The notes under the pieces: generated by a model
Told to the model about the DNA's origin: nothing
Database searches by the model: none
Seen by the model: the letters and a program-made list of their open reading frames with translations, nothing else
In this document: positions 1-2,862 of the stretch, one piece after another
Numbering within the stretch: the stretch's first letter is position 1
Layout of the letters: each line of letters opens with the position of its first letter
Program-made: the position numbers and the translations under genes
NCBI GenBank assembly: GCA_964464975.1
Contig: CAYXKV010000001.1
Span: 457 to 64,456, forward strand
DNA: 64,000 bases
Reading direction: 5' to 3'
Source: an uncultured Candidatus Saccharibacteria bacterium
GTDB lineage: Bacteria > Patescibacteriota > Minisyncoccia > Phycocordibacterales > WO2-35-19

Positions 1-2862
1 GATAAAGCAGAGAATAAAGATAACTACTATACGCTTGTAGAATTTCCTTATCCGTCCGGAAATCTACATATTGGGCACTGGTACGCCTTTGCCGTGCCGG
101 ATATTTTTGCCCGAATGAAGAGAATGCAGGGTTACAACGTCCTATTTCCAATAGGTTTCGACGCTTTCGGACTACCGGCTGAAAATGCCGCCATCAAGCA
201 CGGCCTTGATCCAAAAAAATGGACTTATGAAAACATCGCCCATATGGAGAAACAGCTCCAGAGCATGGGAAACTCTTTTGATTGGTCGCGCAAAGTAATT
301 ACCTCGGATCCAGAGTATTACAAGTGGACACAGTGGCTCTTCCTCAAGTTTTATGAAAAGGGGCTAGCATATAAAAAGAAGGCATCGGTCAACTGGTGCC
401 CCAAAGACCAGACTGTTCTCGCAAACGAGCAAGTGGTTAGCGGTAAATGCGAAAGGTGTGGCACTGAAGTAGTGCAAAAGGATCTTGATCAGTGGTTTTT
501 CAAAATCACTGATTATGCGGAGCGCTTGCTCTCTGGCCTTGATAGCCTGAAATGGCCGGAGGCAATAAAGGAAGCCCAGAGAAATTGGATAGGGCGTTCT
601 GAAGGAGCAGAGATCAGTTTTAAGCTGATTTCAAGTAGCGAGCATCAAGTGACGAGCATCAAGGTGTTTACGACGAGGGCGGATACTTTGTTTGGGGCGA
701 CATATCTTGTATTGGCGCCAGAACATGAAATAATCTCAGAACTAAAAAATCAAAACGCAAAACAACATCTTAAAATTCAAAATTGGGAAGAAATAGAAAA
801 ATATGTTAAGAGCGTGAGAAACAAGTCTGATATCGAGAGGATTTCAGACACCAGAGAAAAAAGCGGAGTTGAATTGATAGGAGTAAGAGCGATTAATCCA
901 GCAACAGGGGAAGAAATTCCTGTCTGGGTTGCAGACTATGTTTTAGCAAGCTACGGCACTGGGGCGGTCATGGCCGTACCATCCCATGACGAGCGCGACT
1001 TCGAGTTTGCAAAAAAATTTGATTTGCCTATAAAGCAGGTGATAGCTCCTCATATAATTGACCTTGATAACCCACCTAAAGAAGGGAAGAGGTGTGCCCC
1101 AAGGATAGTGGTCCAGGGAATTGTAAGGCATTGGGAAAAAGATGAGGTCATACAAATTGTTTGGAAAAAATTCCCATGGAAGACATTTGTCATAGGCGGA
1201 GCCGAAGAAGGGGAAGACCTTGTTGAGGCGGTAAAAAGGGAAGTCAGGGAAGAAACAGGTTACAAAAATTTTAAAAATGTAAGGCCCCTTTCATATGAAA
1301 TGAGATCTGAGTGGTATGCAAGCCATAAGGACGAAAACAGATACGCCCACATGAATATGTTTGAAGTAATTCTCGCAGATGGAGAAAAAGAAGAGATTGA
1401 TCAAGAGGAAAAAGAAAAGCATGAAGTGGCGTGGGTGCCTTTCGCTTCAATACCAAAGAGCTACGCTCACGTAGGGGAACTAAAAGATATTTGGGAAGGA
1501 CTCAACATAGAGGATTATCCGAGATGTTTTCAGGGAGACGGCATACTCATAAGTTCTGGAGAATTTAGTGAAATGAAATCGGAAGTAGCAAGAGAAAAAA
1601 TTGCGGAGAAGTTCGGAAAGAAAGCAGTCAAATATAAATTGAGGGATTGGCTCTTGAGCCGCCAGAGGTATTGGGGGTGTCCCATACCGATAGTGTACGA
1701 TCCCGAAGACAAACCGCACGCAGTGCCGGAGGATTATCTTCCGTGGCTTTTACCTCAAGATGTAAAAGATTTTGCACCCAAAGGGGAGTCGCCTATCGCA
1801 ACTTCGCTAGAGTTCAAAGAGAGGACAGAGAGAATTTTTGGAAATGGCTGGAAGCCGGAGTATGATACCATGGACACTTTCGTAGACTCCTCATGGTACT
1901 TCCTTCGATATTGCGATCCTCACAACAACAAAGTGCCCTTCGACAAGCTCAGGGCAGTAAACTGGATGCCGGTCAAGAGATATTCGGGCGGAGCGGAACA
2001 CACTACCATGCATCTTCTCTATTCCAGATTTTTTCACAAGGCTCTTTTCGACATAGGCCTTGTCAGTGAGCCGGAACCTTTTGCAGAGAGGATGAATCGC
2101 GGGCTTATTCTCGGCCCCGACGGGCATAAAATGAGTAAGAGCAAAGGCAACGTCATCGATCCGGATGAATGGGTGAGGAAAGTAGGGGCGGATACTGTGA
2201 GGACTTACCTTGCATTCATCGGACCTTTCAATGAGGTGGGGCAGTATCCGTGGGATTTGGGCGGAATTGCAGGTGTACGCAGATTCTTGGAAAAAATTTG
2301 GAGAATCAGCTTAGAGCTTGAAGCTAAAAGCTTAGAGGAAAAAACAAACGGAAAAAACCTCCAAGCTAGAAGCTCCGAGCTAGAAGCTTTGTTGCACAAA
2401 ACAATAAAAAAAGTTACCGAAGATATTGAGACTTTTAAATTCAATACGGCAATTTCATCTATGATGATTTTCGTAAACGAACTTGAAAAAAATATTATAC
2501 CACACGAAAAAAGCCAAGGGTTCCCCTTGGCAATGGAGGAGATGGGGATGTTTTTGAGGATACTTGCACCTTTCGCTCCGCATATGACGGAAGAGATCTG
2601 GTCTAAAAATTTTGGATACAAAATTTCAATTCACCTTGAACCTTGGCCTGAGTATAACGCAACAAAGATTTTGGATGAAAAAATTACAATAGTTGTACAA
2701 GTGAACGGCAAAGTCAGAGCGAGCTTCAAGGCAGAAGTGGGAATTTCGGAAAAGGAGGCGCGTGAAGTCGCCCTTGAAATGCCAGAGGTCAGTAAGTGGC
2801 TAATTAAAGCCATAAAAAGGGTGATATTTGTGAAAGACAAGGTCATTAATTTTATAGTTTAG
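1..2862 (+). CDS. leuS: Leucyl-tRNA synthetase, 5'-truncated at the window edge, carrying an internal Nudix-domain insertion
   Basis: Frame 1 is open from nt 1. The HIGH motif ([13 protein letters not shown]) is at the window start. The editing domain ([34 protein letters not shown]), KMSKS (HKMSKSKGN) and the zinc knuckle (CPKDQ...CERCG) are all present. Confidence 0.9.
   Translation, partial: [953 protein letters not shown]

Follow-up and report, generated by a model that had tools for sequence, protein, structure and literature searches.

A Nudix hydrolase domain nested in the CP1 editing domain of a Patescibacteria leucyl-tRNA synthetase is very probably an exchangeable cassette

Few enzymes are as conserved as the aminoacyl-tRNA synthetases, in which an extra domain usually marks added biology. 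The leuS gene at the start of a 64,000-nucleotide stretch of DNA from an uncultured Candidatus Saccharibacteria bacterium (assembly GCA_964464975.1, contig CAYXKV010000001.1, positions 457 to 64,456 of the forward strand; this whole stretch is the window in what follows) encodes a leucyl-tRNA synthetase (LeuRS) that seems to hold a second enzyme, a Nudix hydrolase. The locus therefore raises the question of whether this domain is real, where it sits, how it came to be there and what it might do. We found that a genuine Nudix domain is almost certainly nested in the window LeuRS and that it is, very probably, an accessory and recombining cassette.

A sequence-only reading of the window had placed a complete Nudix domain, catalytic box included, inside LeuRS, and the profile and fold evidence bore this out. 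The Pfam family NUDIX (PF00293) scored 48.8 bits on the whole protein and 51.8 bits on the segment alone, against a cut-off of 21.1. The box fits the pattern GX5EX7REUXEEXGU, a Tyr at the last hydrophobic position being its lone deviation. An AlphaFold2 model of the module, made with a 45-sequence alignment, has the alpha/beta/alpha sandwich of the Nudix fold at a predicted local distance difference test score (pLDDT) of 93.5, and the insert is Nudix fold throughout. In a model of the full-length LeuRS (pLDDT 89.1, predicted template modeling score 0.82), the Nudix segment stands at 91 to 97. The conserved editing-site loop TGAVMAVPS of this otherwise confident model falls below a pLDDT of 50 (residues 347 to 355 of P0001, a public 980-amino-acid protein with 100% identity to the window LeuRS; window nt ~958-984). 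The module and the parts of CP1 on either side of it are as follows.

580..1044, plus strand: portion of the CP1 editing domain 5' of the insert (Pfam PF13603, E=1.7e-60, profile positions 1-145 of 185)
1045..1524, plus strand: nested Nudix hydrolase cassette, 160 amino acids (APHIID...EDYPR)
1195..1263, plus strand: Nudix box, the motif for metal binding and catalysis, read from the sequence
1321..1341, plus strand: subfamily signature SHKDENR (consensus HKxxNR), with K93, N96 and R97 nearly invariant in alignments
1525..1650, plus strand: CP1 C-terminal hairpin/helix, the part 3' of the insert, where allele substitutions cluster

The insert is bounded by IKQVI (nt 1030-1044) before it and by the resumption of CP1 at nt 1525-1566 after it, with 160 residues in between. 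The coordinates that the earlier reading had given, 1066 to 1520, fall within this true insert (1045-1524), but the insert lies inside CP1 and not, as had been proposed, between CP1 and the catalytic core. The insert breaks the PF13603 profile at position 145 of 185, and beyond it the alignment to CP1 of Thermus thermophilus LeuRS (1H3N) resumes; therefore, the Nudix domain is nested inside CP1. In that alignment, P0001 residues 377 to 531 stand in place of T. thermophilus residues 364 to 371, so that an enzyme domain of 155 to 160 amino acids takes the place of an 8-residue CP1 loop of bacterial LeuRS. The expectation that ordinary LeuRS has only a short loop at this point was thus correct, and insert-less close relatives of the window protein have 7 to 48 residues there. 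The module is attached on the outside of the editing domain, in a surface loop of CP1.

The architecture recurs widely. When LeuRS relatives were surveyed for the same insert, 87 of the 120 best (53 to 77% identity) carried the Nudix module at the window site. The insert is near-constant in 85 of the 120, with 160 to 191 residues between anchors (mostly 176 to 180) versus 7 to 48 in relatives without it, which have SGGNISSE or similar at the insertion point. An exhaustive HMMER search with the module alone, run against 1.84 billion cluster representatives, returned 304 proteins at E<=1e-3, of which 147 reached E<=1e-10. We classified the hosts of the 148 newly returned proteins among the best 150 matches: 107 were LeuRS or LeuRS fragments, 28 were free-standing open reading frames (ORFs) of about 160 to 200 amino acids with a Met start, 9 were other or longer proteins, and 4 were short fragments. 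More than 200 independent sequences have the LeuRS-Nudix architecture with constant insert length and an uninterrupted frame. The GTDB genomes that match the cassette are labeled Candidatus Taylorbacteria, Parcubacteria and Paceibacterota; that search used a 7-sequence alignment, which reaches the window's own cassette type only.

The sequence-only reading had not recognized this architecture as a described one. In the full-text literature, we found no description of a Nudix domain nested in the LeuRS editing domain, of its multiplicity of sites and copies or of its behavior as a recombining cassette. However, the window LeuRS is not alone in it: a precomputed PF00293 annotation marks the architecture in hundreds of public sequences from Patescibacteria, and it is common in Paceibacteria LeuRS. 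It is thus known to databases through automatic annotation, yet uninterpreted. Some such genes are left by the insert with the name "class I tRNA ligase family protein" and nothing more specific.

Free-standing and inserted copies have the HKxxNR motif in common and, at the N terminus, a DxxNPPxEGK..(E)R extension; the module is therefore a discrete Nudix subfamily. Its features are that extension, a canonical Nudix box and HKxxNR downstream, and its free-standing genes encode about 165 amino acids. Members of the Ap4A-hydrolase/RppH/decapping group (1F3Y, CT771, E. coli RppH and AvrM14) are 13 to 25% identical to the module; unlike them, the subfamily has its own NPPxEGK extension at the N terminus and the HKxxNR motif.

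The main new finding comes from closely related alleles. A neighbor-joining tree built on 771 well-occupied LeuRS core columns interleaves insert-bearing and insert-less sequences. P0022 (964 amino acids, with the cassette) and P0041 (814 amino acids, without it) are identical at 369 of 373 and 424 of 434 positions on the two sides, and their differences concentrate beside the insertion point. The loci of this pair, L015 and L016, were taken from separate assemblies within a single project and share ~8.4 kb (99.9% identical), with five mismatches outside one patch. This patch consists of a 450-bp indel, ~35 divergent bp upstream and ~125 divergent bp downstream, which implies that a segment of ~0.6 kb was replaced by homologous recombination with a diverged allele. 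A second pair, P0101 and P0077, is 93 to 100% identical in LeuRS and 30% identical in the cassette; the two cassettes differ in type, one with a canonical and one with a degenerate box, and the downstream flank is co-converted. Across 3570 pairs, cassette and backbone identity are uncorrelated (Spearman 0.03). Backbone identity exceeds 75% in 201 pairs, and in 125 of these the cassettes are less than 45% identical. Where LeuRS alleles are otherwise nearly the same, their substitutions gather in the ~40 amino acids after the cassette (window 1525..1650); judged by these patterns, the CP1 hairpin/helix after the insert appears to travel with the cassette in relatives as a co-converted flank.

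The window gene has such a tract of its own:

880..1300, plus strand: approximate tract of foreign ancestry, covering the end of CP1 and the first two-thirds of the Nudix module, from sliding identity

P0001 residues ~321 to 460 are 75 to 85% identical to P0108, and the remaining LeuRS is 45 to 65% identical to it. The backbones nearest to the window LeuRS are P0002, P0028 and P0029 (75 to 98%), of which P0028 and P0029 are insert-less; over the foreign tract, these three fall to 38 to 56% or have no insert. The window leuS itself thus appears to be a mosaic. Conserved LeuRS blocks lie on either side of the cassette, and recombination through them suffices to explain its movement. Neither intein, Hint, endonuclease nor transposase signatures were found in the cassette among Pfam hits at E<=1, and a vector search found no relatives in IMG/VR viral contigs or, by tblastn, in GenBank phages. 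We rejected an intein or homing endonuclease as the identity of the insert, which has no such domains and no splicing-junction residues (it starts APH, and CFQGDG follows it).

The insertion region is a very plastic surface. Unrelated loops of 30 to 50 amino acids occupy it in P0029, P0037, P0038, P0049 and P0062. Ten other close LeuRS relatives (P0035, P0039, P0040, P0050, P0053, P0055, P0061, P0064, P0067 and P0069) are missing both the cassette and the whole CP1 hairpin of ~35 amino acids that follows it ("...IKEITPDWSLLEKFGKK..."). On a 205-kb contig of a metagenome-assembled genome (MAG) named "uncultured archaeon", nt 4840-7782 of locus L011 encode a 980-amino-acid LeuRS with the cassette at the window site, which suggests that the cassette crosses the boundary between the candidate phyla radiation (CPR) and DPANN, unless the contig is mis-binned.

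The synthetase around the module is an ordinary bacterial one. Frame 1 of the plus strand runs uninterrupted from nt 1 until a stop codon at 2860-2862, and the 5' edge of the window removes the first 27 codons of leuS. The NCBIfam equivalog TIGR00396 (leuS_bact) scored 948.5 bits on the window LeuRS against a cut-off of 548.4, and the alignment to 1H3N had an E value of 1e-222. The remaining features of the gene are these.

1..2862, plus strand: leuS, bacterial-type leucyl-tRNA synthetase (TIGR00396, identity to P0001, alignment to 1H3N)
67-78, plus strand: HIGH motif, read from the sequence
667-687, plus strand: CP1 T-rich motif FTTRADT, read from the sequence
985-999, plus strand: editing Asp motif HDERD, read from the sequence
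2128-2142, plus strand: KMSKS motif, read from the sequence

Like the bacterial enzymes 1H3N and E. coli 4AQ7/3ZGZ, the window LeuRS is a full class Ia synthetase, with HIGH, KMSKS and CP1 motifs and anticodon-binding and C-terminal domains. The large leucine-specific insertion of the T. thermophilus enzyme (about 592 to 637) is absent from the alignment of the window protein. Residues T251, T252, R253, T256, H356, D357, R359 and D360 (P0001 numbering) do not vary among 90 aligned LeuRS, whether insert-bearing or insert-less. By its motifs, the CP1 editing site appears intact, and, with the aminoacylation and editing motifs both in place, the enzyme would be expected to work normally. Relatives share the gene order YchF, DUF5671, leuS, sigma70_r4 protein, DUF8128, YceG and MnmA, and this order was found both with and without the insert; at L012, for instance, an insert-less leuS lies within it. 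Because relatives keep the flanking genes in order in either case, the window leuS is the orthologous housekeeping gene of a Paceibacteria (Patescibacteria/CPR) bacterium and not a paralogue.

The window site is one of several that the module occupies. In other LeuRS loops, it lies ahead of CP1 between LLxDLD and LxWPESIKE, singly or as a tandem pair, or where CP1 starts, with GAEIxF before it and VFTTRPDT after it, or farther downstream. Ten representatives have two modules, and P0121 and P0122 have three. Multi-copy LeuRS include P0121, P0122, P0123, P0126, P0130, P0134, P0151, P0185 and P0198, as well as the locus L009 (nt 117-3437). Within P0121, the copies at noncanonical sites are 40 to 44% similar to the window module, and its own window-site copy is 32% similar.

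We looked up the genomic context of seven free-standing members. P0127 (JGI 3300071358) ends 1 nt upstream of a cassette-bearing leuS, and P0160 (L017, L018 and L019) ends 2 nt upstream of an insert-less one (in L018, nt 492-977, with leuS from nt 980); both are apparently translationally coupled to leuS. P0194 is clustered with, and points the same way as, metG, tatD, a YfbR-like nucleotidase and leuS. P0196 precedes by 0.7 kb a prolyl-tRNA synthetase (ProRS) that itself carries the module (in L027, the stand-alone gene is at nt 1533-2084 and ProRS is at nt 2762-4693). The contexts of P0203 and P0176 were uninformative, and that of P0191 is considered below. We did not count as a member a 145-amino-acid generic MutT-like Nudix protein (L024 nt 5976-6413), which scored 13.6 bits on the subfamily hidden Markov model (HMM). 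That gene lies 4 nt upstream of an insert-less leuS, in the cluster with P0194, TatD and the YfbR-like nucleotidase.

In ProRS, the module (P0206 and P0269 to P0272) sits between the anticodon-binding and C-terminal domains of the archaeal-type enzyme. This arrangement is rare: among the 120 ProRS relatives that matched best, 5 have it, in a DPANN-like clade with members named as Nanoarchaeota or Woesearchaeota, and it adds little to a general link with synthetases. That the module is found beside leuS again and again speaks for a functional tie; alternatively, insertions into the gene may be seeded by a copy that resides upstream of it. Five proteins of 273 to 308 amino acids (P0258, P0162, P0264, P0268 and P0251) consist of the C-terminal half of a CP1-like domain with the Nudix domain nested at the same point; an example is L028 nt 412-1251, with 27% GC and neighbors other than LeuRS. 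Such proteins look like the cassette and its co-converted flanks living as an independent gene.

Other domains also lodge in LeuRS. Near P0001 residue ~240, P0016, P0024, P0060, P0063 and P0065 have a Vsr-like DUF559 domain (PF04480 and PF18741), and P0047, P0082, P0085 and P0092 have a Ser_hydrolase/alpha-beta hydrolase at that same loop. These domains occur with or without the Nudix cassette. The DUF559 endonuclease could be a homing-type driver of local gene conversion.

Next, we considered whether the module is kept as a working enzyme. Among 249 family modules, 237 (95%) have the E-x-x-E-E metal-binding triad and 178 (71%) have the full Nudix box. The K, N and R of the signature are retained in at least 90% of members, degenerate-box clades included, and clades with a softened box (E to Q; R to C/S/A; REVR[TS]E) still keep both the triad and the K/N/R motif. 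Since synonymous sites are saturated in all pairs of the seven LeuRS genes with DNA (proportion of synonymous differences, pS, 0.66 to 0.95), constraint was judged by comparing the proportion of nonsynonymous differences (pN), which is 0.18 to 0.42 in the Nudix part and comparable to the 0.16 to 0.42 of the LeuRS core. There were zero interrupted copies among the modules examined. By these measures, the module seems to be under purifying selection, and the conserved residues make it probable that it is catalytically active.

Regarding the substrate, the best solved-structure matches of the family profile are lupin Ap4A (diadenosine tetraphosphate) hydrolase 1F3Y (E=4e-7, 33.2 bits) and Chlamydia CT771 (E=1e-6, 31.8 bits), with a decapping effector also among them. 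An aromatic pair stands 17 to 18 residues after the Nudix box (W-Y in the window, F-[FY] in the family); ApnA hydrolases have an aromatic residue, Tyr, 16 to 18 residues after the box. The K, N and R of the signature may bind phosphate, and a polyphosphate would be a fitting partner for three basic residues that hardly vary. Ap4A is a synthetase product, formed from aminoacyl-AMP and ATP. In the mechanism we propose, the tethered Nudix domain would be an active Mg2+-dependent pyrophosphohydrolase with a substrate linked to aminoacyl-tRNA synthetase chemistry. The likeliest candidates would be Ap4A and other dinucleoside polyphosphates, or else a related substrate of the Ap4A-hydrolase/RppH type, be it a polyphosphate or a 5'-capped nucleotide. 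Through fusion, or through the translational coupling of a gene that ends 1 to 2 nt before leuS, the two activities would be co-expressed one to one and clearance would be local. We offer a substrate of the ApnA/RppH type together with a functional tie to the synthetase tentatively, as possible rather than probable.

Taken together, these results lead us to lean, by a modest degree, toward a nested, constrained and accessory Nudix domain that is active on a synthetase-linked nucleotide. Several findings weigh against this explanation. LeuRS does not need the module, which is dispensable between near-identical strains, and some clades have degenerate boxes (E to Q, R to C/S/A). The sequence-only reading had suggested that the domain might clear Ap4A, Ap3A or mis-activated adenylates, which is still the best single guess, though a tentative one; Ap4A hydrolases are indeed the top profiles, but the scores barely separate the families, since 31 to 33 bits for Ap4A hydrolases are only slightly above the 23 to 30 bits of other Nudix families. 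The module reached no NCBIfam equivalog: the RppH models NF001936, NF001937 and NF001938 gave 15.5 to 23.1 bits against cut-offs of 116 to 139, NudI gave 28.5 against 95, NudB 18.1 against 103, NudE 18.1 against 169, NudC 18.0 against 158 and IDI 13.6 against 127. Beyond the synthetases, the M17 (leucyl) aminopeptidase P0263 (1318 amino acids), a further housekeeping enzyme filled with small-molecule-modifying domains, contains the Nudix module twice along with two GNAT domains, the stand-alone copy P0191 follows fpg/mutM co-directionally, and the same LeuRS loops host a DUF559 endonuclease or an alpha/beta-hydrolase. The peptidase, the copy by fpg/mutM and the unrelated loop domains fit general nucleotide house-cleaning equally well.

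Such findings are what one would see if the module were a passenger, a general nucleotide-sanitizing Nudix protein (MutT-like or housekeeping) with no functional relation to LeuRS. On this account, a copy of a neighboring gene lodged in permissive loops of a highly expressed essential gene and persists as a harmless, co-expressed domain spread by recombination. The module's dispensability between 99.9%-identical genomes agrees with this, as do the DUF559, Ser_hydrolase and 30- to 50-amino-acid inserts of unknown nature in the same loops, its presence in the M17 peptidase and a few DPANN-type ProRS and the placement of P0191 by fpg/mutM and of P0194 beside the YfbR-like nucleotidase and TatD. 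A stand-alone copy directly upstream of leuS would also be a ready local donor for intragenic insertions. We nevertheless consider a passenger somewhat unlikely, given that 107 of the 148 representatives are in LeuRS, that three of the seven stand-alone genes are at or near leuS and a fourth is by proS, far above chance in a genome of roughly 1000 genes, and that multiple independent insertion sites lie all around CP1. Another account, in which the Nudix fold serves the editing domain as a noncatalytic structural, tRNA-binding or nucleotide-sensing appendage, could account for the strictly conserved module size and for the altered boxes: GX5Q and [CSA]E replacing RE in P0009, P0012, P0022, P0082, P0093 and P0104, AEIxEEAAL in P0073, P0084, P0096 and P0101, and REVR[TS]E in P0005, P0007, P0008 and P0024. 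It is very improbable, however, because the window box is perfect, most modules keep the full box and nearly all keep the three metal-binding Glu residues, stand-alone homologues keep the same motifs, and LeuRS can dispense with the module.

The allelic pattern admits a further account, namely, that the module is a conflict or immunity cassette, a defense element tethered to its target that destroys a nucleotide toxin, an adenylate-mimicking inhibitor or a signaling nucleotide. Diversifying or balancing selection would then keep the deeply divergent and often swapped alleles, akin to the GNAT, hydrolase and endonuclease domains in CPR/DPANN enzymes. Near-identical backbones with no cassette, or with cassettes just 30% identical, are a polymorphism typical of conflict loci, and the NCBIfam exception model for an isoleucyl-tRNA synthetase (IleRS) with an N-acetyltransferase domain offers a precedent, a class I synthetase bearing a domain that modifies small molecules. 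GNAT (MccE/RimL) and HIT (MccH) enzymes detoxify aminoacyl-nucleotide antibiotics. Yet ordinary horizontal exchange among long-diverged lineages explains the deep allele divergence equally well, the known adenylate-mimic antibiotics have sulfamoyl or phosphoramidate links that are atypical Nudix substrates, and no defense genes were seen beside the locus and no relatives were found among phages or in IMG/VR, so we hold a conflict role to be distinctly unlikely. Its broader form is unlikely too: that the module is a new kind of mobile unit, an in-frame enzymatic cassette in translation enzymes of ultra-small symbionts (mainly CPR LeuRS, also DPANN-type ProRS and the archaeal-MAG LeuRS). Such a unit would spread and diversify by recombining through conserved flanks of the host gene, and a conflict role would keep its deeply divergent alleles; it could, for instance, destroy a nucleotide-type toxin, inhibitor or signal directed against the synthetase or its tRNA, as an immunity domain embedded in its target. 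Finally, the data are metagenome assemblies, in which strain chimeras can occur, and the architecture could in principle stem from chimeric assembly, from two genes fused by a frameshift or from a motif matched by chance. The probability of such an artifact is practically negligible: five contigs, from at least two samples, carry the identical P0001, the insert length and frame hold across the more than 200 independent sequences, and the Pfam, fold and alignment evidence is significant throughout. A strain-chimeric assembly is likewise an unlikely explanation of the L015/L016 pattern, as L015 could be chimeric only if perfectly matching 141-mers bordered the ~16%-divergent tracts at either edge.

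Nudix fusions are known, and so are synthetases to which a domain has been appended or into which one has been inserted, as CP1 was. Bifunctional Nudix fusions include NadM-Nudix (NMN adenylyltransferase/ADP-ribose pyrophosphatase) and mycobacterial MutT1 with its histidine-phosphatase domain (5GG6). These resemble the LeuRS module in that a Nudix domain is covalently joined to an enzyme of related nucleotide chemistry; in contrast, they are end-to-end fusions, and the module is nested, exchangeable and present in up to three copies. The NCBIfam family NF040702 (isoleucine--tRNA ligase, N-acetyltransferase domain-containing) is alike in being an essential class Ia synthetase with an accessory enzymatic domain but differs in the synthetase and in having a GNAT rather than a Nudix domain. 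Inteins and polymorphic-toxin cassettes share the presence/absence polymorphism, the co-converted flanks and the phylogeny decoupled from that of the host. Unlike inteins, the LeuRS cassette is without Hint or homing endonuclease domains or splicing residues and stays in the mature protein, and its movement needs homologous recombination alone.

The rest of the sampled window is ordinary CPR housekeeping, namely, an AlaRS, DnaK, a class II synthetase, a Pif1 helicase, a histidine kinase and an ABC transporter, and the Nudix insert is in none of these other sampled proteins. There is a single tRNA-Gly(CCC) (62658-62729), and two ORFs, of 945 amino acids (59658-62495, minus strand) and 488 amino acids (16950-18416, plus strand), had no Pfam match at E<=1e-5.

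Throughout a large and uncultivated lineage of bacteria, an essential synthetase thus has an entire second enzyme within its proofreading domain. Ap4A is a synthetase by-product of debated physiological role, and the pairs P0022/P0041 and P0077/P0101 are natural matched alleles for what a tethered Nudix domain does, for example, in Ap4A control. The in-frame exchange of a domain cassette in an essential gene, without intein or transposon machinery, bears on the origin of multidomain proteins and on the plasticity of CPR/DPANN genomes.

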